Notes under the pieces: model-generated
Told to the model about the DNA's origin: nothing
The model's database searches: none
Seen by the model: the letters and a program-made list of their open reading frames with translations, nothing else
Translations under genes and position numbers: made by a program
Part shown: positions 7,531 through 19,216 of the stretch, piece after piece
Position numbering within the stretch: the stretch's first letter is position 1
Layout of the letters: every line of letters starts with the position of its first letter
Assembly: GCA_030597775.1 (NCBI GenBank)
Contig: JAUVRF010000001.1
Coordinates: 1-25,726 of the forward strand
Source: Methanobacteriota archaeon
GTDB lineage: Archaea > Thermoplasmatota > DTKX01 > GCA-020343715
Direction of reading: 5' to 3'
Length of the DNA stretch: 25,726 nt

Positions 7531-9285
7531 ATGCCAAGCGGACAGCCCCACGTCGTCCGCACCTTCACCTTGGTCCTCGTCGTGGTAGCCCTCGCCCTGG
7601 CCCCGACCCTGGTCGCGGCATCCCCCCTGGCCGATGCGGGTCCCGAGATCGAGGATTACACTGGCAGGCCAGTGGTGTTCGAGGGCTTCGGGACCCCGGA
7701 CGAATCCCAGAGGATCATACTGTTCGAGTGGGATTTCGACGGTGACGGTGAATACGACTGGAATTCCACCAAGACCGGCATGGCCACGTACAAGTTCTGG
7801 GACGTGGGAAAGTACAACGCCACCTTCAGGGTGACCCAGTACAACGTGGACGACCAGGAACTGGTGACCGACAACGACACCACCAGCGTCAACATAATCT
7901 CTGGCAAGCCCGTGGGCAGGATCACCTCCACCTCGACCGCCCTGGTGAACTCGGACCATCGACTGGAGGCCGATTACTACGACCCGGACGGGGGCCAGCT
8001 GGAGTACGAATGGAGGATAGACGGGGACCTGGCCTCGAACGAGGCGTCGTTCAAGTACGAGTTCAAAGAGCTCGGGACCTACAACGTGACACTCTTCGTC
8101 ACCGATGACGAGGATGAATGGGTCACCCGACAGATCGACGTCAGGGCCGTCGAGGAGCTGGACGAGGAGTTCGACAACTCCATCTACGTCTACGCCATCG
8201 TCATCGTCCTGGCGATCCTCGTGGTGGCGGTCTTGGCCTACTGGAGCATCCTCAAGGGTCACAAGGAGGGCAAGGGGAAGAAGGACCCGTTGACCTACGC
8301 GGAGATGGCGGGAGGGTCCTCCGAGATCGTCACGGAAGCAAGCCTGGCGGACCGGGAGGCAGAGGCCGCGCCACGGTCCAAACCGAAGGTGGTCAGACCG
8401 GAACGCGTGGTGGCGGGTCCCGGGAAGGCCAAGGGCGGGGGGCCGAGGGTGGCCGCTGCCCCGGACCGCATGCCGTGCCCCGAATGCGGCACGATCATGT
8501 CCGAGGATGGCTCCTGCGCCTTCTGCGGTTCGAACGAGGCCATCGATAGCGTGGAGAAGCAGATCCGGGACCACCAGGGCGAGGGATACATCCTGGCCAA
8601 GGCCGAGGAGGAGCTTGAACGTGCCAAGACGGAGCTCCACGTCAAGAACTTCGACGAGGTCGATGAGTACCTCGCCAATGCCAAGGAGCTGATGGAGGTT
8701 GCCGTTCGAGAGCACGAGAAGTGCCTCTCCCTCATGGCCTTGAACGACGAACTGATAATCATGGCCAAGGACCTGGACCTGGACGTTACCAAGGCGTCGA
8801 ACCTGCTCAAGCTGTCCAAGTCCTTCCTGAAGTCGGGGAAGTACGAGAAGGCGGTATTCTACGCCGAGCGTAGCCGCGATTACCTCCTGGACACCCTCGA
8901 GCCGTTCGACCTTGACCTCTACTTCTGCGAGCACTGCAAGGGGGAGGTCGGCGAGGCCGACGACGAGTGCCCCCACTGCGAGGAGGCCATCGAGAGCGGT
9001 ATTCTCAAGAGGGCCAAGCGGGAGCTCGCGGAACTGAAACGGCGCTTCGGGGGACTCTCGAAGGGCCACGAGAAGCACCAGCCCATCGCTGCACAGCTGG
9101 AGAAGGCCACCGAGCATGTGGATAGCCGTTCAACCTCCGCCGCCAACGAGCACATCGGCAAGGCCCGTGGGATGCTGGACGAGGCCGGGGTGGGGGACGG
9201 AACGGACGGGGAGGCCGAGACCTCGGACGAGGAAGACGTGGAAGACAAGGAAGACGACGAGGCCGAGGGGGGGCACACCTCGTAG
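7531..9285 (+). CDS. Single-pass membrane protein: signal peptide, 2 PKD domains, TM helix, cytoplasmic Zn ribbons and helical repeats, acidic tail
   Basis: Hydrophobic N-terminus TFTLVLVVVALALAPTLVAA. PKD motifs P.ADAG...FEWDFDGDG.YD.......G.Y..T.RVT and DPDG..L.Y.W..DG....F.Y.F...G.Y.VTL.VTD. TM segment IYVYAIVIVLAILVVAVLAYW. CPECG...CAFC and CEHC...CPHC knuckles. Start 7531 (ATG) preferred over 7492 (GTG). Confidence 0.85.
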   Translation: MPSGQPHVVRTFTLVLVVVALALAPTLVAASPLADAGPEIEDYTGRPVVFEGFGTPDESQRIILFEWDFDGDGEYDWNSTKTGMATYKFWDVGKYNATFRVTQYNVDDQELVTDNDTTSVNIISGKPVGRITSTSTALVNSDHRLEADYYDPDGGQLEYEWRIDGDLASNEASFKYEFKELGTYNVTLFVTDDEDEWVTRQIDVRAVEELDEEFDNSIYVYAIVIVLAILVVAVLAYWSILKGHKEGKGKKDPLTYAEMAGGSSEIVTEASLADREAEAAPRSKPKVVRPERVVAGPGKAKGGGPRVAAAPDRMPCPECGTIMSEDGSCAFCGSNEAIDSVEKQIRDHQGEGYILAKAEEELERAKTELHVKNFDEVDEYLANAKELMEVAVREHEKCLSLMALNDELIIMAKDLDLDVTKASNLLKLSKSFLKSGKYEKAVFYAERSRDYLLDTLEPFDLDLYFCEHCKGEVGEADDECPHCEEAIESGILKRAKRELAELKRRFGGLSKGHEKHQPIAAQLEKATEHVDSRSTSAANEHIGKARGMLDEAGVGDGTDGEAETSDEEDVEDKEDDEAEGGHTS

Positions 9286-9321
9286 CCATTTTCCCCGCAA
9301 ATGTTTTGAGACAGCGCGTCA

Positions 9322-9498
9322 ATGGGGCTGGCCGTGGTAGACCTGGTAGGACTGGCCCTGATCCTCGGCCTGGTCGGTTCGGGAGCGTTCCTCTTGCATT
9401 CGATGGAGGTCACACGTTCCCTGCCGAGAGTGCGTCTGGCCGCCGTGCTCAGCATCTTGTTCATGATCACCTTCATCTTCTACGTCTCCCTGGGGTGA
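9322..9498 (+). CDS. 58-aa small membrane protein with two hydrophobic helices (absent from the ORF track)
   Basis: MGLAVVDLVGLALILGLVGSGAFLLHSMEVTRSLPRVRLAAVLSILFMITFIFYVSLG*. It fills the gap, has GC3-rich codons, and its end (GGGGTGA) supplies the RBS for the next gene 4 nt downstream. Confidence 0.7.
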   Translation: MGLAVVDLVGLALILGLVGSGAFLLHSMEVTRSLPRVRLAAVLSILFMITFIFYVSLG

Positions 9499-9502
9499 TG
9501 AT

Positions 9503-9973
9503 ATGAGCAAGATGGTCAAACGGATGCCGTGGGTTGATGCGCCGCCTGAGGACGTCGACACGCTCCCGCGTCCACCGACCCCGATGTCCGTGAACGACCT
9601 ACCCGACGACGTGCGCCACGTGGTCACCATGCGACCCAGGAGGCACCCCAGGGTGGAGTGGGAACTTGACGAGGAGACCGGACTGGTCACCCTCGTCTAC
9701 CCGAAAACGTTCTCGAAGTTCGAGCAGGCCCTGGGGATCCTGGTAAAGCCCGTGACCGAGCTACGGAGGCCCCTTGACGGCCCAGGCTCGTTCATCTGGC
9801 AGATGTGTGATGGCAAGAACGACATTGCCATCATCTGCACCGCCGTGGACGAAGCGTACAAGGAGGAGATGGAGCCCGTCCTCAAGCGGGTCGTGGGTTT
9901 CATCCAGTTGCTGGCCCAGAGAGGGTTGATAGACCTGACGAGGGAAACCCATGAAGATCAAGCAGAAGATTGA
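9503..9973 (+). CDS. PqqD-family (RiPP recognition element-like) protein with an N-terminal extension
   Basis: P.VEW......G.V.L..PK, then LD..GSFIW.MCDG...I..I.......Y.EE.EP...RV..FI..L..RGLI, the PqqD winged-helix pattern. Confidence 0.8.
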   Translation: MSKMVKRMPWVDAPPEDVDTLPRPPTPMSVNDLPDDVRHVVTMRPRRHPRVEWELDEETGLVTLVYPKTFSKFEQALGILVKPVTELRRPLDGPGSFIWQMCDGKNDIAIICTAVDEAYKEEMEPVLKRVVGFIQLLAQRGLIDLTRETHEDQAED

Positions 9974-10160
9974 GAGAGGCAAGAAGAAGGAAGTGGTGAC
10001 CACCCTGTTCTGTCCAGATTGCGGTGGGACGAACCTCAGCTACGAGGCGGGCATGATAACGGGCCAGAAGTACCACTGCGCGGACTGCCACTACAGGGGC
10101 ACTTTCGTACTGGAGCGGAAGGTCGTCATGAAGGACGACGAGGTGGTGGAGGAGCTCTAG
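9951..10160 (+). CDS. Small Zn-ribbon protein
   Basis: 69 aa with CPDCG.TNL.YE.G.ITG..YHC.DC.Y.G.FV. Overlaps the PqqD-like gene by 23 nt. Confidence 0.8.
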   Translation: MKIKQKIERGKKKEVVTTLFCPDCGGTNLSYEAGMITGQKYHCADCHYRGTFVLERKVVMKDDEVVEEL

Positions 10161-10247
10161 CGACGCCCCTCCCCGAGGACTGAACCCCGGTCCTGACCCA
10201 ATCCTTTTCTATCCAATCGCCCATCTCCGGGAAGGCGGTGGACCCAG

Positions 10248-12860
10248 ATGCTGCTCAATCTCTTCCAGGTAAGGCTCCGGGCCAAGGATGTCCCGGATGG
10301 CCATGTGGCAGAGGGCACCGTCTGGGCCGAGCCAGAGGAGATCCACCCCGGGGATGAGTTCCAGGTGTCGGTGGAGCTCAAGTTCCCCGAGGGCGGTGCC
10401 CCGGGTTCCATAGAGGCCAAGGTCTCCCCACCCGAGGACATCACGGTCGACACACCCCAGGTCGACATAGGACCTTATGGGGCCACCGTGACCATACCCG
10501 CGGTGGCGGCGGAGGAGGTGGAGCTGGGCATGTACTATCTCCAGGTGGTCTACTCCGACGAGGAGCGGGAGCACTTCGAGGCGGAGGCGGCCTTGGAGGT
10601 GAAGCGCCACTGGGTCCGGATAGGCCAGGTTGTGGCCCGGCCAGAACGTGCCTCTCCTGGCGACCCGGTGGACGTGGCCGTCCCCCTTGCCTTCGAGGGG
10701 CAGGCCCGCGTCCGAGGTCACGTGCGTGGCCGCCTCGTGCCCGAGGAATGGGACGGCTCGGACGAGCACGCCATCAAGCTACCAAGGGAACGCAGCTCTG
10801 TGGCAGGGGAGAGGGAGCAGATCTGGCACATCCGGCTTCCCAGGGGCGTGCCCGAGGGGAGGTACAACGCCGACATCGAGTTCTCGTCCCAGGAGGGCAC
10901 CGCGAGGAAGCGCACGCGAAGGGTGCTCCTCCTTGTGCCCCAGAGGGGCATCGACGCCATCAGGCCCACGGTGGAGCCTGCCCTCCTGGCCCCGGGAGAC
11001 GATCTTGTCATCACCACGACGGCCGAGAACATCGGCAGGGAGGACCTGCTGGTCCGCGTGGGTGGTGAGCTGGTCCCCGAATCGGGAGGCAACCTCGTCC
11101 CCCTCGAGGAGCGGGACATCCCCCTCGCGCCCGGAGAGACCCAGCAGGTGGAGTGGTCGATCCAGGCCCCGGAACGCCACGGTCGATGGATGGTCCGTAC
11201 AAGGGCCAGGGCCGAACGGACCGACGGCGCGGACCCGCCCGTGGTGGTCCTCGACGTCAGGCCCCACCACAAGGTGCAGGTCGTGGGCGCTGTCCCGGCC
11301 CGGCCATGGGCCGCCGTCGGCGAGATGGTGGACGTGTCCATGCAACTGACGGACTCTGGCTCGAGGCCAGGTTCCGATACCACCGTCTCGGTGTCCCTGG
11401 AAGGCGAGGAGGGCGAGGCCAGCGAGGCCCGCTGGTCGGGGAGCATCGATAGCGAGATCAGGGAGGCGAGCGTCACCGTGGAAGTGCCACGCCCCCCGTC
11501 GGGGCCCGGGAGGGACGGTGAGGGGGATGACGAGACCCAGACCTCGACCCGGTTCGCCCTGGTCGTCCGGGACCTGGATGGAGATGAGCTCCTGCGCATC
11601 CCAGGGGCGGTGGCCATCCGCAAGAGGGTGCAGATAGACCCCAGGGTCGTGAAGGCCCCGCCGGACCCGACCAAACTGGGCGACTGCATGTTCCCCGGCG
11701 AGAGGGTGCTCAAGACCGTCGACGCGGGCGACCTGACGATCGTCGAGCTGTCCAGTGGTTCCCGCCTGTACGCCCGTGGTGACCAGGTGGTGGGAGTTGA
11801 CCATGGGGTCCCGATGGACGAGGCCTTCTGGGACGAGGCCCTCGGGGCCGACGCGGGGATGTACACCGACCTGAGGAAGGGGATACAGCTGGGCGCCCAG
11901 GCCGCCAGGGCCGAGGCCATCGCCATGAGGGCCCTGGGGGACTCCCTGTCCCGTGGCGAGGGGTCGGCCTCCGGTCTCATCAAGGACACTCGGGAGCTTG
12001 CCAAGACCCTTGACCCGGACAGGAGGGCGAGGGGTGTCAGCCCGAGGAGCGGGCCACTGGCACCCTTGGCAGCGTGGCTCTACGACCAGGACGCCCCACC
12101 GGACGATGGCAGGGAGATCGTCCTCGAGCTCAGGAAGGAGATGGTGTCCGCCCAGAAGGCGAAGGGAGGAAAGGACGCAACGAAGGAGGCCTCGGCCGCG
12201 GCCAGGGCGGCCTCCGACCACCTGGAGCGCCTGGCGGACCTGTTCGCACGGGCGTGGGAGCAGGACCGCCTTCACGTTCGTGACCTGGGAGCCATGGCGG
12301 CCCTGGTGGCCGCTGCGGGAGTGGCGGAGGTCGAGCTCCATTCTCGGAGGCAGGAGGGTGATCCGTGGGCATCGCCGGTCCAGTCGATCGAGGAGGGCAG
12401 GGTCGCCCGCCATTCCATGTCGGTCCAGCTGGCCGCCTTGGTGGAAGTGATCGCCAGGCATCGTATCCGTCGCAACGCATGCACGTTGAACACCCGGCAG
12501 CGGGCAAGCCATGCCGCCGTGGTCAGGGACCTCGAGGTCGCCTTCGGCCCCTCCGTTGGCCACTCGGGTGACGCGACGGAACTGGAGATCGAACTTCAAA
12601 ATCACTCCCCCATCGATCTGGAGCTCCGTCTCAACGTGGCCCTCCCCTCGGGGGCCTGGGCCGTCCTGGAGCCCCAGGCACGTGGCGCCGAGGGCATCGT
12701 CTTCGTCGGTCCGTTCCACGTTCCCGCACGCACACGGGAGACGGTCAACCTGGTCCTCTACGTGCCTTCGACGGTCCGCCTTGACTCGTACGTCCTGCCC
12801 ATCGAGGTCGTCCCCGACCCCAAGGAGATAGTCATCGAGCAGCGGGGTGGTGCCAAGTGA
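10248..12860 (+). CDS. 870-aa hypothetical protein: four tandem Ig/CARDB-like beta-sandwich repeats, a helical region and a C-terminal Ig-like domain; no signal peptide or TM helix seen
   Basis: Repeats of about 100-110 aa begin P....PGD.(F/V/L).V and end G.Y/W.....; LAPGETQQVEW is CARDB-like. RBS GGTGG lies 8 nt upstream. Coding-like codon bias. Confidence 0.75.
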   Translation: MLLNLFQVRLRAKDVPDGHVAEGTVWAEPEEIHPGDEFQVSVELKFPEGGAPGSIEAKVSPPEDITVDTPQVDIGPYGATVTIPAVAAEEVELGMYYLQVVYSDEEREHFEAEAALEVKRHWVRIGQVVARPERASPGDPVDVAVPLAFEGQARVRGHVRGRLVPEEWDGSDEHAIKLPRERSSVAGEREQIWHIRLPRGVPEGRYNADIEFSSQEGTARKRTRRVLLLVPQRGIDAIRPTVEPALLAPGDDLVITTTAENIGREDLLVRVGGELVPESGGNLVPLEERDIPLAPGETQQVEWSIQAPERHGRWMVRTRARAERTDGADPPVVVLDVRPHHKVQVVGAVPARPWAAVGEMVDVSMQLTDSGSRPGSDTTVSVSLEGEEGEASEARWSGSIDSEIREASVTVEVPRPPSGPGRDGEGDDETQTSTRFALVVRDLDGDELLRIPGAVAIRKRVQIDPRVVKAPPDPTKLGDCMFPGERVLKTVDAGDLTIVELSSGSRLYARGDQVVGVDHGVPMDEAFWDEALGADAGMYTDLRKGIQLGAQAARAEAIAMRALGDSLSRGEGSASGLIKDTRELAKTLDPDRRARGVSPRSGPLAPLAAWLYDQDAPPDDGREIVLELRKEMVSAQKAKGGKDATKEASAAARAASDHLERLADLFARAWEQDRLHVRDLGAMAALVAAAGVAEVELHSRRQEGDPWASPVQSIEEGRVARHSMSVQLAALVEVIARHRIRRNACTLNTRQRASHAAVVRDLEVAFGPSVGHSGDATELEIELQNHSPIDLELRLNVALPSGAWAVLEPQARGAEGIVFVGPFHVPARTRETVNLVLYVPSTVRLDSYVLPIEVVPDPKEIVIEQRGGAK

Positions 12861-14038
12861 CCCGCACTGGGGACCGTGGATTGGATGCCGGGCTGGCACG
12901 ATTGCTCCAGGCCGTGGACATGTCCAATGCTGGCATGACCCTACCGAAGGAGGCCCCTCCCGCCAAACAGCTGGGTAAGATGCATCACCAGGGCTGGTTG
13001 ATCCTGTCCCGCGCCGCCAAGGGCCTGGGTACCGACGTGACCTCCCTCCAGAGGTCCGCGGAGGCCTCCCCCGTCCTCGAGTCGGCCAAGGCAGAGCCAC
13101 CGCGGCTGTTCGGCCTGTTCAAGCGCAAGCCCGAACCCGCGGTCCGGTGGAAGGCGCGCGAGGCGATCGAGGGGCCGTTCCGCGACGACCCGGTCGCGAT
13201 GGCGAAGAAGGTCTCGGGCCACCGGATCCTCACCGACAGGATCGTACCCATCGCCTCACAGGTGAGGAGCCGGTCCGTACCGGGCAAGTTGCGACGGCCT
13301 CCAGCGGGCCAACGCTACATTCCTCCAACGCCGTCCAGGGAAGCGCTTCTCATGAAGGTGGACCGATCCCTGCTTGAGAGGTACGCGTTAGAGGCGGCCG
13401 GTCCGGAGCACCGACGAAGACCACCCAGGTCACCCCTCAAGTTCTCGGACGGCTATCCCGCCAAGGACCTGTCATCCGCCATCCGCCTCCTGGTGAGGGC
13501 GAAGGCCCGGGAGGTGGCGGACCGCATGCGCAACGGGACCCTTGCCGCCTGGTTCAGGGACGAGGCCGGCGAGGTGGATCTGGCCGCCGTCGTGGACGCG
13601 GCCGCCCATGCCGCGACCGAGCGGGGGGCCAGCGACGAGGAGACCCGGGCGTTGCTCCTGAGGTACATCCGGAGGACCCCCGTGGGAGCAGACCTGGAGC
13701 GGGGTCTCATAGAGCCCATGGCCGAGGCCCTGCGGTCCAGGGACGGTGCCCTGGTGGCCTCCAACGCCGAGGCGCTCCTCCTGCTGGACGCAGACCTGGC
13801 GGCCGCGGAGCTGTCATCGGCCCTGTTCGAGACGGAGGTCACCGGACGGGCTGCCGTCATATCGGCCATGGGCGAGACGGGCTCGCCGAGGGCGGTCGCC
13901 GCCCTGGAGCAGCTTGCCCACGCCGCCACCCGCGACGAGGACCGCGAGGGAGCCCTGGCAGCCCTGCGCAAGCTGGCCAGCGAGGGCGCTGCCCAGGATG
14001 TTGCGGGGGCAGCCCTGGAGCGTCTCGGGCAGGCCTGA
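12857..14038 (+). CDS. Hypothetical helical protein with C-terminal HEAT-like repeats
   Basis: GTGA overlap with the upstream stop. The C-terminus RAAVISAMGETGSPRAVAALEQL...DREGALAALRKL resembles PBS-lyase HEAT repeats. Confidence 0.7.
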   Translation: MTRTGDRGLDAGLARLLQAVDMSNAGMTLPKEAPPAKQLGKMHHQGWLILSRAAKGLGTDVTSLQRSAEASPVLESAKAEPPRLFGLFKRKPEPAVRWKAREAIEGPFRDDPVAMAKKVSGHRILTDRIVPIASQVRSRSVPGKLRRPPAGQRYIPPTPSREALLMKVDRSLLERYALEAAGPEHRRRPPRSPLKFSDGYPAKDLSSAIRLLVRAKAREVADRMRNGTLAAWFRDEAGEVDLAAVVDAAAHAATERGASDEETRALLLRYIRRTPVGADLERGLIEPMAEALRSRDGALVASNAEALLLLDADLAAAELSSALFETEVTGRAAVISAMGETGSPRAVAALEQLAHAATRDEDREGALAALRKLASEGAAQDVAGAALERLGQA

Positions 14039-14051
14039 GCCCCGTGGATCT

Positions 14052-14079
14052 CAGGTCACTGGTCCCAGGTCACTGGTCC
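14052..14079. repeat. Perfect 14-bp tandem duplication (CAGGTCACTGGTCC x2)
   Basis: Copies at 14052-14065 and 14066-14079, in the 45-nt gap between convergent genes. Confidence 0.9.
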
Positions 14080-14083
14080 TCGC

Positions 14084-14557
14084 TCACTTTCCGTCGATCT
14101 TGAGCGACCGACACCTTCGTTCCAGCAGGTCCTCGGGCGAGAAGCGACCATCTGATGGTGGGGCAGTGGCGAGCCTGTACAACCTGGAAGGTGCCTGTCC
14201 CAGCTCCATCTCCTCCGGCGGGCTCCCGTCCATCACAAGACCCTCCCTGGTGTATGTGGCCAGCTCCTGAGGACCCGAGAGGGATACGGCGTCCTCCCCG
14301 CAGACGACAACGCACATGCCACACCTCGCGCAGGGACCTGCATCCACGGTGGGGACCCCTCCGCCCTCTGGCACGTGAAGGCATGCCGATGGACATGGAC
14401 CGATGCAATCACCGCAGGAGGTGCAGGCGGCCCTGTCGATCACGGGCACGCCACATACCGGTCCCTCCACTGCGAGGCGCTCAAGGGGCCAGTCCACCGT
14501 TGAGACCTCACGGCCCATCGCGAGGGCGAGGAGACGGAACGCTGGAGGCCCCCTCAT
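14084..14557 (-). CDS. nuoI: NuoI-like 2x[4Fe-4S] ferredoxin subunit
   Basis: ATG overlaps the nuoH stop (ATGA) with RBS GGAGGTGA. MRGPPAFRLLALAMGREVSTVDWPLE corresponds to the NuoI T..YP.E motif. CTSCGDCIGPCP and CARCGMCVVVCG. Only the last 157 codons of track ORF 14084..15850 are real. Confidence 0.8.
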   Translation of the reverse strand: MRGPPAFRLLALAMGREVSTVDWPLERLAVEGPVCGVPVIDRAACTSCGDCIGPCPSACLHVPEGGGVPTVDAGPCARCGMCVVVCGEDAVSLSGPQELATYTREGLVMDGSPPEEMELGQAPSRLYRLATAPPSDGRFSPEDLLERRCRSLKIDGK

Positions 14558-15582
14558 GCCATCACCTCCATGATGACCGCCACAACGACCAGGTTGAGGG
14601 AAGCGAGGGGTAGCCAGTGATTGCGAACGGCCCGGGCGGTCCCCTCGGGGGTTGCCAGTGGTACCGCCGCCGCGAACATCGATGCGACGATCACCAGGAT
14701 GTAGGCCTTGGTCAACGTCCACCAGGCCCCGTCGGCAACGGGTCCGGACCAACCTCCCAAGAAGACCAGGGCACCCAGGATGCCCAGGGCGAGGTAACGA
14801 GCGGCCACGGCCGAACGCCCGATCGCCATATGGGGACCGGGCCATCCCTCCTGGACGCGTGAGGTCGATCGGACCCGGGACAGTCGCATGGACTCCCAGA
14901 ACATAACGAGCATGAACAGCAAGAACCCCAGGGGGACGAGGACGATGCCCCAACCCCAGTCGGCCTGGGACTCCACGATATCCACCCCCGACGAGGTGCC
15001 CCCGACCAGCAGCATCGAGCCGATGGTGAGGAGCAGGACGGCACCCGAGGCCGTCGCCTCCGCGACCTGGGCATGACGTCGACCCGCGGGTGCCATCGCC
15101 GCCATGGGCACTGGGGCGAGGGCCAGCAATCCCGCGGCGACGACCAGGCCCCACACGGGGTCCGCCAGCTTCAACCAGGGGCTGAGCGGGAGCAGGGCGA
15201 GGGCGCCCAGCACCATGGCCCATGACAGGGCGGCCCCGGCAGCCGACGGGACGCCGGGACGCTTCCTGAGCAACAGCTTGAACCAGTCCGCAATGCCCTG
15301 CAGGGTACCCCAGGCACCCACATGGCGGGGACCACGCCTGCCCTCCACCCGGGCACGTACGCGACGATCGATCCACATGGTCAGCTCGGCAGCCAACAGT
15401 GTCCATATGATGAGGAAGACAGCGGCCACACCGGCGGCGAGCCATAGCGCCGCGTCCCCGTTGAGCCACTTGACGAAACCGTGGAGATAGCCCTCCTCGA
15501 TGCCCAGGCTCTCGAGCACCACGAGGACCACGTCCAGGAACCACCGGACGAGGTCGAGGTAGAGCTGGTAGAGGTCGCTCAC
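14554..15582 (-). CDS. nuoH: NuoH (ND1)-like membrane subunit, divergent
   Basis: DRRV.AR...R.GP..VG..G.LQ.IAD..KL, multiple TM helices, FLGGW.GP, W...KA. Start 15582 (GTGA overlap) or 15591. Confidence 0.88.
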   Translation of the reverse strand: MSDLYQLYLDLVRWFLDVVLVVLESLGIEEGYLHGFVKWLNGDAALWLAAGVAAVFLIIWTLLAAELTMWIDRRVRARVEGRRGPRHVGAWGTLQGIADWFKLLLRKRPGVPSAAGAALSWAMVLGALALLPLSPWLKLADPVWGLVVAAGLLALAPVPMAAMAPAGRRHAQVAEATASGAVLLLTIGSMLLVGGTSSGVDIVESQADWGWGIVLVPLGFLLFMLVMFWESMRLSRVRSTSRVQEGWPGPHMAIGRSAVAARYLALGILGALVFLGGWSGPVADGAWWTLTKAYILVIVASMFAAAVPLATPEGTARAVRNHWLPLASLNLVVVAVIMEVMA

Positions 15583-17234
15583 CGGTCGCACCCCCCGACG
15601 CAGATGTCCACGGAGGCCACCGCCAAGGCCACGTCCTTCTCAGGGCACCCCAGGAGCAGGTCCTCGAGGGCAGCCACGTGGGCGAAGTCGGGTCCCCGCA
15701 GGCGCATCCTCCGGGGAATGTCCGTGCCATCCGAGACCACGTAGCAGAGCACCTCTCCCCGGGGACCCTCGACCACACCCAGGCCTCGACCCTTGGGAAC
15801 GGCCTCGGGCATGGAGGACCGCACACGGCCGCCCGACATCGACCTGGCAACCTGGGAGAGCGTCAGTGCCGAGGATGCCATCTCCAGCAACCGCAACTCC
15901 GTGCGCGCCATCGCGTCCCCAGACTCCCTGACCTGGACGGGCACCGTGTAGTCCAGGTACGAACGGCACCTCCCGTCCGCCCTGGCGTCCCGGGCAACCC
16001 CGGTCGCCCTCAACAAGGGGCCGGTCATCCCCCAGCCCCTCATGTCCTGCAGATGCACCGGTGCCAGTCCCTCCAATCGGCGGAACGGCGCCAGGGACTC
16101 GGCCTCCTGCACGTACTCCTTCACGGCGGCCTGCACGGTGCGTGAGAGGCGGATGATGCGTTCCGACCAGGGATCGGGAGCGTCCCGCACCACACCCCCC
16201 ACAACGATGGCATCCTGCACGAGCCGCTGTCCCGTGACGACCTGGGAAACGTCCATCACCAGTTCCCGGTCCGCCCACACCCGTGCCGCAGAGGCGACGC
16301 ATCCGAGGAGGTCCAGGGTCGTGGCATATGCCAACATGTGGTCCGCGATCCGCTCCATCTCCATCAGGGCCACCCGGATGGCGCGTCCCCGGGGTGGTAC
16401 CTCCTGGTGGCACAGACGCTCGACCGCCTCCGCGTAGGCCACCTGCCAGTGGACGGAGGACCGGACCGCCGCCCTGGCGACCAGGGGCATGACCTCCCTG
16501 TACGGTCGTTCCTGTGCCAGGCCCTCGACCCCGCGGTGCAGGTGACCGATGGACACCCGGGCCTTGGTCACCCTACCCTCGTTGGCCCGGACCTGGAGGT
16601 CCATCCGGCCGCCCATGGATGGATATGGCAGGTCCACGTGGACCAAGGACTCTCCCCCGGGTGCATCATCGCCAGGCGTCACCGTACCATCATCCGGGGC
16701 CACGGTGCGCTGTCGGGCCTCGTCCCGTCGAAGAGGATGGCCCACACCCCACCTGGGGAGAAGCAAGCGCCTCATGTCGTCGTGGCCCTCGAAGGGCACA
16801 CCGGACAGCTCCCAGGCCTCCCGCTCCAGCCAGTTGGCCGCCCTCCAATGCCTCGAGGCCGACGGCGCTCGGACCGACCCCCCGTCCTCCCTATCCGGGG
16901 GATACGAGGTGCAGAGCTCCAGGGTCGCCCCTCCGTCGAGACGGGTCACGTGATGGACCACCTCGAGTCCCTCCCCAAGGTCGGTCCGGTCCACCACGGT
17001 GATCGCCATCATCTCGTCCAGGCCCACCACGTCGTGCAGGGCGTCAAGGGCCTCCTCGTGAAGGTCGGGGATGCCCTCGGCCCTGACCAGATGGTCATCC
17101 ACCACCTCAACGGACCTCACCAGGTCGACTGCCAGGTCCCGGAGCCTCGTGGCCAGGTCGTCAACGTTCAGGGCCGACGATCCCGCAGCGGGCATTCCGA
17201 CGTCATCGGCCGCCTGCCCCTCCTCGCCGGTCAA
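15579..17234 (-). CDS. nuoCD: Fused NuoC-NuoD-like subunit, divergent
   Basis: NuoC part: A.W.EREAWEL.G..F.GH.D.RRLLLP......HPLR.D. NuoD part: IG.LHRG.E, AVE.L....VP.R...IR....E.ERIA.H, TG.R, GP.LRA.GV..D.R, EGPRGE, R.R.RGP.F, S.D....DR. TTG 17234 overlaps the nuoB stop and follows a GGAGG RBS. Confidence 0.9.
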   Translation of the reverse strand: MTGEEGQAADDVGMPAAGSSALNVDDLATRLRDLAVDLVRSVEVVDDHLVRAEGIPDLHEEALDALHDVVGLDEMMAITVVDRTDLGEGLEVVHHVTRLDGGATLELCTSYPPDREDGGSVRAPSASRHWRAANWLEREAWELSGVPFEGHDDMRRLLLPRWGVGHPLRRDEARQRTVAPDDGTVTPGDDAPGGESLVHVDLPYPSMGGRMDLQVRANEGRVTKARVSIGHLHRGVEGLAQERPYREVMPLVARAAVRSSVHWQVAYAEAVERLCHQEVPPRGRAIRVALMEMERIADHMLAYATTLDLLGCVASAARVWADRELVMDVSQVVTGQRLVQDAIVVGGVVRDAPDPWSERIIRLSRTVQAAVKEYVQEAESLAPFRRLEGLAPVHLQDMRGWGMTGPLLRATGVARDARADGRCRSYLDYTVPVQVRESGDAMARTELRLLEMASSALTLSQVARSMSGGRVRSSMPEAVPKGRGLGVVEGPRGEVLCYVVSDGTDIPRRMRLRGPDFAHVAALEDLLLGCPEKDVALAVASVDICVGGCDR

Positions 17235-17806
17235 AGCAACCCCCCCTCCTCCGGTGGCACGTGGAAGTACGGACCCCCGGTGTCCCGGACCCTCTCGGAG
17301 AGCTTGACCAGGCCAAGGAGCACGGCCTCGGCTGTGGGGGGGCATCCGGGCACGTAAACGTCCACGGGCACGACCTGGTCGACGCCCCCCAGAACGGCGT
17401 AACCACCGTTCCACACCCCGCCGCCAACGGCGCCGCTTCCCATGGCGCTGACCCATCGGGGCTCGCCCATGCGGGCCAACAGGTCCGGAAGCTCCATGCG
17501 TGCGATCCGGGTCATCGGACCGTCAACCAGGAGAACGTCGCACCCCTCGGGATCGTCCTGGAAGACCGCACCCAGGCCCTCTGGGTCCCAACGGGGCCCC
17601 CGGACGGAGAGCGACTGCAGCGAGCAGCATCCGATCCCCGCCGTCGCGGGCCAGAGGGATCTTGCCTGGGACCAGGAGAACGTCCCGCCCTTGACCCGCT
17701 CCATGGGTCTGTCCAGGCGAAGGGTACGGATCATGCGCCTACCCACAGAACCGCTCCACTCCACCAGGGCCCGGCTCCTTCCGAACCGGGGTCCGGGGTC
17801 GGTCAC
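17231..17806 (-). CDS. nuoB: NuoB-like Fe-S subunit, divergent
   Basis: W....SLWP.T.G..CC, D.L.V.G, M.EP.WV.AMGS.A..GG, Y.V..GVD.VVPVDVYVPGCPP. Start 17806 (GTGA overlap) or 17824. Confidence 0.9.
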   Translation of the reverse strand: MTDPGPRFGRSRALVEWSGSVGRRMIRTLRLDRPMERVKGGTFSWSQARSLWPATAGIGCCSLQSLSVRGPRWDPEGLGAVFQDDPEGCDVLLVDGPMTRIARMELPDLLARMGEPRWVSAMGSGAVGGGVWNGGYAVLGGVDQVVPVDVYVPGCPPTAEAVLLGLVKLSERVRDTGGPYFHVPPEEGGLL

Positions 17807-18165
17807 CTGCGCACCCCCACCCACGTGGGCATTGCATATCCGACGGATACCAGCAGGGCCGCGAAGGCCAGGACGAAGGTGCTCACGGGCAGGTCGTCCA
17901 GCAGGGGTACCCCATCAACGATATCGGGCAACATCAATGCGATGAGCAGGGACGCGCCGATGACCGCCAGGAAGGAACCGGCTATCACGCGCCCCGTGTG
18001 GGCCTCCGGCCGTCTGCCCGGCGGGGGGCCGCGACCGGCCTCCCTGGCCACGGACCGTTCCGGATGGCCAGTGGACGTCAGCAATGAGGTCCATGGAACT
18101 AGTAGACCTATCAGCAGACCCACTAAGAGGGTCATCACAAGCACCGCCAGCTCCGCCTCTCCCAT
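17803..18165 (-). CDS. Probable highly degenerate NuoA (ND3)-like 3-TM subunit
   Basis: 120 aa, TM1, a 30-aa loop, TM2, TM3. By-eye alignment: REAG for YE[CS]G, IALMLP for VAFLWP, LVSVGYAMPTW for LFVGFLYEW. It occupies the canonical nuoA position directly before nuoB with an overlapping stop. Confidence 0.6.
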   Translation of the reverse strand: MGEAELAVLVMTLLVGLLIGLLVPWTSLLTSTGHPERSVAREAGRGPPPGRRPEAHTGRVIAGSFLAVIGASLLIALMLPDIVDGVPLLDDLPVSTFVLAFAALLVSVGYAMPTWVGVRR

Positions 18166-18220
18166 CGTGTCGCAGGATGGCCCTCAGCGGTATTGAACGT
18201 TTCCCGGGGGAGGCGTGGAT

Positions 18221-18230
18221 TTGATATAAT
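18221..18230 (+). promoter_or_regulatory. TATA-like element for the rhomboid gene
   Basis: TTGATATAAT about 20 nt upstream of GTG 18251, suggesting a near-leaderless transcript. Confidence 0.45.
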
Positions 18231-18250
18231 GTCGCACCCCTCTCGGGACC

Positions 18251-19216
18251 GTGGTTCTGCTCAACCCAGCCTCCGCTTACGTCATCGCCGCCATACTGTG
18301 CGTCATCGTAGGCACGTACATCATCGCGATATGGCGGAAGATGTCCTTCACGGCGGCCACCGTGATCGCCAACATCGTCATCTTCATCATCTACATGGCC
18401 CCAATGAACGACGACATCTTCAGGGACGTCGTGACGACCCTGGGGTTCAACAACTCGTCGCTTCAGACGGGAGAGCAGCTCTGGGGAATGTTCACCCACA
18501 TGTACATCCATGCCAGCTTCCTCCACGTGTTCTTCAATATGTTCATCCTCTTCATCATGGGCATTCACTTCGAGGATCGGGTGGGCTTCAAGTGGATGGC
18601 CATCGTGTACTGGGGAACGGGCGTCCTTGGTGGAGGTCTGGTGGCCGGGTTCCTCACCCTGCCAGATATTGTCATCGGGATCGGCGCCTCGGGCGCCATT
18701 TCCGGGGTACTGGGCGCCTTCGCCATCATGTACCCCAGGGATCGTGTCCCGATGGTCATCATCTTCATCATCCTGCCCCGGGTCCAGGTTGCCCTGGGAG
18801 CCCTGGTGTTCATCCTCTTCCAGACCTTCCTGTTGCTCTTCGCCGTGCAGTTGCCTGGCATGGGGAACGTCAATTACCTCGCCCACTTGACCGGGGCCAG
18901 GGTGGGGGTGGCGTTCGGTTACATCATGATGAAGAAGGGGGTGGAGGCGCCAAAGCCAGGGGCCAAGCTGGGACGGAAGCTGGACAACCTGGACTACTCC
19001 CCCCTGGGCGAGCTCGCCTACCACCCCGCCAACAAGGAGAGGTACGAGGCCCTCCTCAAGGAGGACATACCCGAGGTGAAGGAGGTCCTCCTGGAGGACC
19101 TGGTCTCCCGCCTCCGATGCCCCGATTGCTCCTCGATACTGACATTGAAGGGTACAACGGTCCGTTGCGAGGGATGCGCCTGGAAGGCCGACCTGCGGAA
19201 GGGCAGGGCCGGCTAG
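18251..19216 (+). CDS. Rhomboid intramembrane serine protease with a C-terminal Zn-ribbon extension
   Basis: FTHM..HA..LH.FFNM..L..MG..FE..G, IGASGAISG.LG (catalytic Ser), AHL.G (catalytic His), then CPDC-x12-CEGC. Confidence 0.93.
   Translation: MVLLNPASAYVIAAILCVIVGTYIIAIWRKMSFTAATVIANIVIFIIYMAPMNDDIFRDVVTTLGFNNSSLQTGEQLWGMFTHMYIHASFLHVFFNMFILFIMGIHFEDRVGFKWMAIVYWGTGVLGGGLVAGFLTLPDIVIGIGASGAISGVLGAFAIMYPRDRVPMVIIFIILPRVQVALGALVFILFQTFLLLFAVQLPGMGNVNYLAHLTGARVGVAFGYIMMKKGVEAPKPGAKLGRKLDNLDYSPLGELAYHPANKERYEALLKEDIPEVKEVLLEDLVSRLRCPDCSSILTLKGTTVRCEGCAWKADLRKGRAG

Follow-up and report, generated by a model that had tools for sequence, protein, structure and literature searches.

A five-gene operon of complex I homologues

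The window analysed here, a stretch of 25,726 nucleotides (contig JAUVRF010000001.1 of assembly GCA_030597775.1), carries an operon of five genes related to those for NADH-quinone oxidoreductase (complex I) in an archaeon of the Thermoplasmatota. The window is one contig (C540) of a 2.7 Mb metagenome-assembled genome (MAG; G000) that comprises 628 contigs and is 73% complete, and because the GC (guanine plus cytosine) content of the window is ~64% it abounds in spurious open reading frames (ORFs). One real chain can be discerned among them, five intact, translationally coupled ORFs on the minus strand that run from 18165 to 14084 in the order nuoA-like, nuoB, nuoCD, nuoH and nuoI:

17803..18165, minus strand: nuoA-like gene, 120 aa, three predicted transmembrane (TM) helices, very divergent
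17231..17806, minus strand: nuoB-like gene, 191 aa, carrier of iron-sulphur (Fe-S) cluster N2
15579..17234, minus strand: fused nuoCD, 551 aa
14554..15582, minus strand: nuoH-like gene, 342 aa
14084..14557, minus strand: nuoI-like gene, 157 aa, two [4Fe-4S] motifs and a ~60-aa Cys-free C-terminal extension

None of the five ORFs contains a frameshift or an internal stop codon, and the genes overlap by 4 nt at all four junctions (GTGA, TTGA, GTGA and ATGA), with a G-rich, GGAGG-like stretch 5' of each overlap. A first-pass annotation, made from the letters of the window, had described five intact, overlapping nuo genes that run up to a convergent gene, and the ORF coordinates and junctions bear out this description. 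For comparison we used the GTDB class of the window, which holds 12 species genomes, nine of them in its order; the order comprises two families, that of the window (G000 to G003, f1; MAGs 73-92% complete) and a sister family (f2) of 5 genomes, and the window's genus is represented by three MAGs that are 73, 81 and 90% complete.

Homology to complex I could be traced subunit by subunit for B, C+D, H and I. The nuoB product matched PF01058 with 63 bits and the NuoB family NF005012 with 133 bits and aligned with PSST/Nqo6 chains at 1e-37, the nuoCD product matched PF00329 (84 bits) and PF00346 (161 bits), and the nuoH product matched PF00146 with 94 bits versus 332 bits for the NuoH of the sister family, while the nuoI product matched Fer4 families and, weakly, NuoI and HycF. 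The Pfam and NCBIfam scores of all these products lie far below the equivalog cut-offs, and the proteins of the module match complex I chains in the PDB at up to 1e-37, 1e-43 and 1e-16. Homologues of NuoB, NuoD and NuoH, the combination by which the superfamily of complex I and group 4 [NiFe] hydrogenases is recognised, are thus found together. Public records name genes of the module 'NADH-quinone oxidoreductase subunit B, C, D', and an annotation pipeline would score them as an incomplete complex I.

The first gene of the operon is very divergent. Its product matched no Pfam or NCBIfam family, PF00507 included, and a PDB search with a profile of the protein likewise returned no match; AlphaFold2 models three helices at low confidence (predicted local distance difference test score, pLDDT, 65). 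The gene precedes nuoB in 10/10 loci that reach this position. When the NuoA-like protein was compared with the canonical NuoA of relatives by hhalign, TM1 and the loop only were aligned (E 0.022), with the loop HP..R...E.G in register with the canonical HP.K...ECG.

Conservation and selection across the clade

A word-indexed search of 5.8 billion proteins returned 36 clusters whose NuoCD is 52-95% identical to that of the window, followed by matches of at most 30%, and an exhaustive HMMER search of 1.84 billion representatives retrieved three representatives of the clade before scores fell from 536 to 242 bits. The five genes recur at ten further loci with intact frames and unchanged order: three in GTDB genomes, six on metagenome contigs and one in CP070808.1, a closed genome of 2,277,065 bp recorded as 'Thermoplasmata archaeon'. 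Protein lengths vary little between loci (A 120-126, B 190-191 and H 340-342 aa), although identity to the proteins of the window drops to 36-70% over the 11 loci. The loci also share their flanks, with a rhomboid gene at one end of the operon and, at the other, a convergent HEAT gene together with the gene for a ~865-aa protein. The lineage is uncultured and is found in marine-sediment and cold-seep metagenomes.

Ratios of nonsynonymous to synonymous substitution (dN/dS) were obtained by the Nei-Gojobori method for the window against G001 and G002:

Window versus G001: dS ~0.15; dN/dS CD 0.20, H 0.28, I 0.21
Window versus G002: dS ~0.9-1.1; dN/dS A 0.22, B 0.13, CD 0.22, H 0.22

Neighbouring genes, including those for TyrRS, TGT, the M29 peptidase and the rhomboid protein, gave dN/dS values of 0.15-0.26 in the window-G002 pair. 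These values indicate ordinary purifying selection on the operon and no decay. The module had been described as maintained from a single sequence, and its recurrence in the 10 further loci, with dN/dS of 0.13-0.28 resembling that of its neighbours, upholds this view.

Conservation extends to the ligands of the Fe-S clusters. Both CxxCxxCxxxC motifs of NuoI (8 Cys, the N6a and N6b ligands) are invariant at the 11 loci, and the four Cys of NuoB that bind N2 (CC, C, C) are kept in all members of the clade except the window; over >40 clade sequences the 12 Fe-S Cys ligands are invariant, with the window NuoB as the sole exception. There, the third N2 Cys is replaced by Gly (codon 17432-17434, minus strand) and an Ile by Ser (codon 17447-17449, minus strand), both through T-to-G changes on the coding strand that lie 13 nt apart (17432..17449), and the protein reads WVSAMGSGAVGGG where 14 relatives of 92-98% identity read WVIAMGSCAVGGG. 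The third N2 Cys is present in these 14 near relatives and in >30 other clade members, which rules out its absence as a lineage trait: the change is private to the window assembly. The Cys-to-Gly and Ile-to-Ser changes probably reflect an assembly or consensus error, or else a very recent mutation.

This private loss of an N2 Cys, together with the fast divergence of the module from canonical subunits, is what could be cited for a decaying relic on its way to being lost. We find such a relic barely credible: the five frames are intact and their lengths conserved at 11 loci, dN/dS is well below 1 and equal to that of the neighbours, and the Cys loss is absent from the 14 near-identical relatives. 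Decay is in effect refuted by these conservation data, namely the dN/dS values and the intact frames.

Portions of each of the five genes are also represented, at 95-99% identity, by contigs of three marine-sediment and cold-seep libraries labelled as metatranscriptomes. These contigs (runs X15, X19 and X20, window positions 13600-18600) are 200-450 nt long and extend over part of the HEAT gene, and no contig from the three libraries covers the rhomboid gene. Contigs identical in sequence occur in X15 and X19, and the two runs may stem from a single data set.

The operon as a truncated orthologue of complex I genes

The window MAG contains one NuoD and one NuoH, and the operon is the only nuo set present; no second nuo operon was found in this MAG or in the family genomes. 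The antiporter-like family PF00361 was found in 0/3 MAGs of the genus and the NuoJ and NuoK families PF00499 and PF00420 in 0/4 MAGs of the family, and tblastn with the NuoJ, K, L, M and N of relatives gave no match in the window MAG. In the sister family, 5/5 genomes encode the canonical operon, A-B-C-D-H-I with K-L-M-N, in one contiguous stretch, and PF00499 and PF00420 occur in all five. By our own estimate, the chance that a block of five genes escaped detection in each of the three MAGs of the genus is 0.27 x 0.19 x 0.10, or ~0.005, assuming that the gaps in these assemblies are independent. The first-pass annotation had remarked that J, K, L, M and N are missing after nuoI; they are indeed missing there, and none was found elsewhere in the MAGs of the genus.

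That the operon stops after nuoI, as had also been pointed out, is correct for the window and yet not unique in the class, since a canonical A-B-C-D-H-I locus ends at the same place in the class-level relative G009. In that genome the canonical set is split between contigs, with A-B-C-D-H-I followed by a gene for an FG-GAP protein on C4 (L025, 7331-12684) and J-K-L-M-N on C54 (L031, 8239-14602), and therefore an operon end at nuoI is by itself no proof that J to N are lost. The NuoI of G009 is ~300 aa long, with extra ferredoxin domains. Another rearrangement is seen in the sister-family genome G007, where nuoH and nuoI are fused in a single 704-aa frame (L032, contig C17, 7708-9822, minus strand; NADHdh at residues 81-391 with 332 bits, Fer4 at residues 485-580).

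The split in G009 lends some weight to the idea that the module is still an ion pump and conserves energy, either with subunits whose genes lie at other sites that the MAGs fail to cover or with unrelated membrane proteins in their place; completeness of the MAGs is 73-92%, and the closed CP070808.1 lay outside the search. We nonetheless regard a pump of this kind as quite improbable. Neither NuoJ, NuoK nor a PF00361 protein occurs in three MAGs of the genus (~0.005 or less by chance, again by our own estimate and if gaps are independent), the pump-coupling channel acids of NuoH and NuoA are themselves lost (see below), and the one PF00361 gene of the family belongs to a separate enzyme. This sole hit lies in G003 on contig C136, beside NuoB-, NuoD- and NuoH-like genes of its own, and is part of an Ech-type group 4 [NiFe] hydrogenase. 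The hydrogenase cluster (L024, ~8004-13079) has one antiporter-like gene and intact NiFe motifs; G003 represents the other genus of the family and has no nuo-like genes besides this cluster, which the window's genus lacks.

The origin of the module can be read from its surroundings, which comprise the following features:

12857..14038, plus strand: HEAT-like gene, convergent to nuoI, ending 45 nt from the nuoI stop
18166..18250, minus strand: divergent intergenic region between the nuoA-like and rhomboid genes, containing a candidate TATA box
18251..19216, plus strand: rhomboid protease gene (PF01694 match), a synteny anchor and not a functional part of the module

The rhomboid gene lies 85 nt upstream of the nuoA-like gene and is divergent from it. 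A homologue of this gene (31-35% identity, Pfam-confirmed) sits divergently upstream of the canonical nuoA in G007, G008 and G004 of the sister family, and since the same divergent gene accompanies both families, the five-gene operon is a truncated orthologue, in place, of the complex I operon of the order and not a paralogue.

Phylogeny of NuoD is compatible with this origin. In a free tree of 82 NuoD domains the clade sits on a very long stem (0.9 + 0.6 substitutions per site) and groups with the aberrant NuoD sequences P0190, P0057 and P0176, among which are one from an A-B-D-H-J-K-L-M-N operon without C and I and one orphan gene. We rejected this grouping as long-branch attraction: the operons differ, synteny points elsewhere, and constraining the clade to the Thermoplasmatota-type NuoD raised the log-likelihood by 36 units, with a p-value of 0.88 in the approximately unbiased (AU) test. 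The clade and canonical relatives further share a Cys in the C-terminal D-x-C-[IV]-G motif of NuoD (canonical ID[VM]C[IL]GE.D[RK], clade D[IL]CVGG.DR).

The first-pass annotation had proposed a paralogue, possibly a decoy, retained beside a canonical enzyme. This does not stand, as the operon is the only nuo set in the genome, the rhomboid synteny ties it to the canonical locus and the AU test does not reject its placement with the NuoD of the lineage. We propose instead that the ancestor was an 11-subunit operon lacking NuoEFG whose 3' half (nuoJ, K, L, M and N) was lost in one family of marine-sediment Thermoplasmatota, that nuoC and nuoD were fused, and that the five remaining genes diverged fast before being held under purifying selection.

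Two observations concern the flanks as such. The candidate archaeal TATA box, ATTATATC at 18230-18223, was identified by reading the sequence and would lie ~60 nt upstream of the ATG of the nuoA-like gene. On the other side, window positions 10248-14038 (plus strand) hold a pair of genes with a 4-nt overlap, convergent to nuoI, which encode a ~865-aa protein without clear Pfam domain and a ~390-aa HEAT-repeat protein; the pair is present in every locus examined (L022, L023, L028, L029, L034-L038 and the window).

A remodelled pocket and the proposed activity

The canonical quinone site of NuoD has been rebuilt throughout the clade. Using T. thermophilus numbering, the beta1-beta2 loop GPxHPxxHG of canonical proteins reads LPxxxMGG, with Gly at the position of H38 (MGG in 11/11 loci and 29/36 database clade proteins), and RxxY(87) reads AR[AT][AS][VA], with Val or Ala at the position of Y87, while the equivalent of D139 varies between D, E and G. 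A new motif, S[VI]HWQ, is present in 36/36 clade NuoCD proteins. Canonical relatives in the class retain H34, H38 and Y87, and the substituted residues are shared neither by the sister family nor by the remaining class. The fold motifs of NuoD (HRG.E, ER.ADH and PRR..R.PD.AH) are retained in the clade, as are the NuoH TM1-2 loop motif R.GP...G..G.LQ..AD..KL and FLGGW.

The acids of the E-channel are also affected. The acidic NuoH TM5-6 loop, PFDLPEAEEEL...TEYSG, aligns to S-RVRSTSRVQEGWPGPH, a basic or neutral loop, and TM2 of the NuoA-like protein has no acidic residue where NuoA carries its TM2 acids. Alignment to solved structures and across the clade thus confirms what the first reading of the window had noticed, that quinone-site and E-channel residues are substituted and NuoI cysteines and fold motifs kept. 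That reading had also set out a simpler picture, in which this would be the only nuo set, J to N would lie elsewhere and the substitutions would be normal for the lineage. It holds in half: no other nuo set is present and the whole family shows these substitutions, but J to N were not found at another place, and neither the sister family nor the rest of the class carries the changed residues.

The C-terminal CVGGCDR of NuoCD suggested a hydrogenase, a reading that we rejected. The large-subunit part of NuoCD has no NiFe CxxC motifs and no RxCGxC motif, an N-terminal CxxC being absent, and the C-terminus, D[IL][CSN]VGG[CV]DR across the clade, has variable cysteines in a register different from that of the NiFe motif.

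Genomic context points to ferredoxin as an electron carrier and to a quinone pool. Each of the four family genomes has 6-9 genes for the alpha subunit of 2-oxoacid:ferredoxin oxidoreductases, and a bc-type cytochrome b is encoded in 4/4. No Rnf, cytochrome bd or MqnA/D was found in these four genomes, and in the window's genus no Ech, Mbh or Rnf alternative was found. A NiFe hydrogenase large subunit of ~500 aa is encoded in 3/4 family genomes. Haem-copper oxidase subunit I (COX1) is present in 2/4 family MAGs (G000:C353:2772-4100 and G003:C35:9032-10351), on a contig of typical GC in the window MAG, and was not found in G001 and G002, a distribution that reflects either patchy aerobic capacity or assembly gaps.

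Together, these observations lead us to propose, with a probability that we put at roughly 55%, that the operon encodes a pump-less, membrane-anchored electron-transfer module which probably oxidises ferredoxin and has a rebuilt acceptor site. NuoH and the NuoA-like protein would form the membrane anchor and NuoB, NuoCD and NuoI the cytoplasmic arm. NuoI would take up the electrons, with reduced ferredoxin as the most likely donor, and its two [4Fe-4S] clusters would pass them to N2 in NuoB and then to an acceptor in the remodelled pocket where NuoB, NuoD and NuoH meet. Our first candidate for this acceptor is a membrane quinone held in a novel manner, because the family has a quinol-oxidising cytochrome b and we recognised no second path by which electrons of ferredoxin could reach the membrane. 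The enzyme would be a non-electrogenic oxidoreductase: lacking an antiporter-like subunit, NuoJ, NuoK and the channel acids of NuoH and NuoA, it should pump ions by no known complex I mechanism. The assembly of the complex is an inference, its lack of pumping is deduced from the established mechanism of complex I, and donor and acceptor are deduced from context. We consider the structure and evolution of the operon to be well supported and its function to be a prediction.

Several considerations weigh against this proposal. In every complex I studied, quinone is bound and protonated by residues that are gone here, and the D139 equivalent is variable, so that quinone reduction is unsupported by any conserved known ligand, and futalosine-pathway menaquinone genes were not found in the family genomes. 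It is hard to rationalise why an organism of energy-poor sediment should forgo energy conservation on the large drop from ferredoxin to quinone. The complex and its activity are predicted from genes, the homology of the NuoA-like protein to NuoA is weakly supported, and the contigs from RNA libraries are a weak hint of expression, as DNA carry-over is possible. The evidence that pump genes are absent comes from MAGs of 73-92% completeness, with the closed CP070808.1 outside the search. Finally, if the loss of an N2 ligand from the window's NuoB is real, the electron wire of this strain would be impaired.

The replacement of H38 and Y87, the variable D139 and the lost channel acids of NuoH and NuoA could be cited for a redox-inactive pseudo-enzyme, that is, a scaffold, assembly factor, membrane tether or redox or Fe-S sensor without turnover. 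All five genes scoring far below equivalog cut-offs and a stem branch of at least 0.9 substitutions per site would fit such a protein as well. We nevertheless consider it rather unlikely: the 12 Fe-S Cys ligands are invariant in >40 sequences, the new invariant residues lie exactly at the old site, as expected of a changed and not of an abandoned active site, selection is as strong as on the housekeeping neighbours, and the genome has no canonical enzyme to regulate or mimic. The label of pseudo-enzyme, introduced by the first-pass annotation, is unproven, and 12 invariant Cys with new invariant pocket motifs fit a changed catalyst better than a dead one.

A related possibility shares most of our proposal and differs in the acceptor, which would be, for example, a sulphur compound (soluble or associated with the membrane), O2 or peroxide, or a partner protein. 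A precedent for repurposing the same fold is the membrane-bound sulfane reductase MBS, N2 persists in spite of the lost quinone ligands, and a new invariant His, Trp and Gln occupy the pocket; no futalosine menaquinone genes were detected, and the habitat is marine sediment and cold seep. On the other hand, nothing indicates a particular acceptor, the divergent and convergent genes that bound the operon leave no room for a co-transcribed partner gene, and the cytochrome b of 4/4 genomes implies a quinone pool. We hold a non-quinone acceptor to be improbable.

The electron-transfer module that we favour is distinct from each of the known systems to which it can be compared. It has the A, B, C, D, H and I homologues of the canonical 11-subunit complex I of the order, in the same order and next to the same rhomboid gene, and shares with it the N2, N6a and N6b Cys ligands, the NuoH TM1-2 loop and FLGGW. 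It differs from that enzyme in lacking NuoJ, NuoK and the three antiporter-like subunits (L, M and N), in the fusion of C and D, in the replacement of H38, Y87 and the NuoH/NuoA channel acids, and in scores far below the family cut-offs. The Ech-type energy-converting [NiFe] hydrogenase, with its six subunits EchA-F, is to our knowledge the smallest characterised member of the superfamily. It is likewise a small membrane-bound module of NuoB-, C-, D-, H- and I-like subunits, but the present module is smaller still, and whereas Ech has the antiporter-like EchA and NiFe CxxC motifs (RVCGICSHQHS and DPCICCTDR in G003), the module has neither. It has, unlike Ech, a NuoA-like subunit, and its sequences are nearest to complex I/NDH-1 and not to hydrogenases; the NiFe CxxC motifs that define the group 4 membrane-bound hydrogenases (Ech, Mbh and Hyc) as a whole are absent from it.

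A counterpart of nearly equal composition is an assembly intermediate of the mitochondrial enzyme, in which the Q-module (NDUFS2, S3, S7 and S8) is joined to ND1. This intermediate is transient and is not known as a stand-alone enzyme, whereas the module, with its remodelled pocket, would be a final product; by analogy, the likeness suggests that such a subset can form a stable membrane-bound subcomplex. We tentatively make a bolder claim, for which we would not go as far as for the activity proposed above: among natural members of the complex I superfamily the module may be the smallest, a stand-alone Q-module with ND1 and ND3 equivalents that has shed the ion pump and passes electrons from ferredoxin over N6a, N6b and N2 to quinone or a new acceptor by means of MGG and S-[VI]-HWQ instead of His38 and Tyr87. 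The first-pass annotation knew of no description of such a module. We too found no module restricted to A, B, C, D, H and I in the searchable literature, which holds 11-subunit operons and a general category of 'incomplete complex I'.

How quinone chemistry at the junction of NuoB, NuoD and NuoH drives distant proton pumps is still debated, as is how the modules of complex I were joined in evolution. Here, one family seems to have dropped the whole pump and kept the electron wire and an anchor of the ND1/ND3 type under selection. If active, the module would show what the redox half does alone and which residues serve coupling only, and a ferredoxin-fed, non-pumping entry to the membrane electron chain could replace complex I in sediment archaea with many ferredoxin-reducing enzymes. 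Nature would then have carried out the experiment of parting the redox chemistry of complex I from its coupling machinery, and the module would be the mirror image of redox-dead relatives that are pumps only.

Such relatives include the Ehr complexes, which according to Marreiros et al. 2013 reportedly have no NiFe ligands and combine NuoB-, D- and H-like subunits with one or more that resemble antiporters. The module does not belong to this group, as no antiporter-like subunit is encoded in the operon and none was found in the genus. Like the module, Ehr and other redox-dead relatives are degenerate members of the superfamily without the canonical catalytic ligands, but they keep the ion-translocating arm and lose redox parts, and the module does the opposite, keeping the Fe-S wire and losing the pump. 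A bacterial locus that we encountered as the context of P0057 (L046; GCA_964435115.1, CAYSYM010000010.1, 8274-17346) carries nuoA-B-D-H-J-K-L-M-N without nuoC and nuoI; its NuoD lacks H38 and Y87 and its NuoJ bears an HMBD domain, the converse reduction, which spares the pump and removes the wire.

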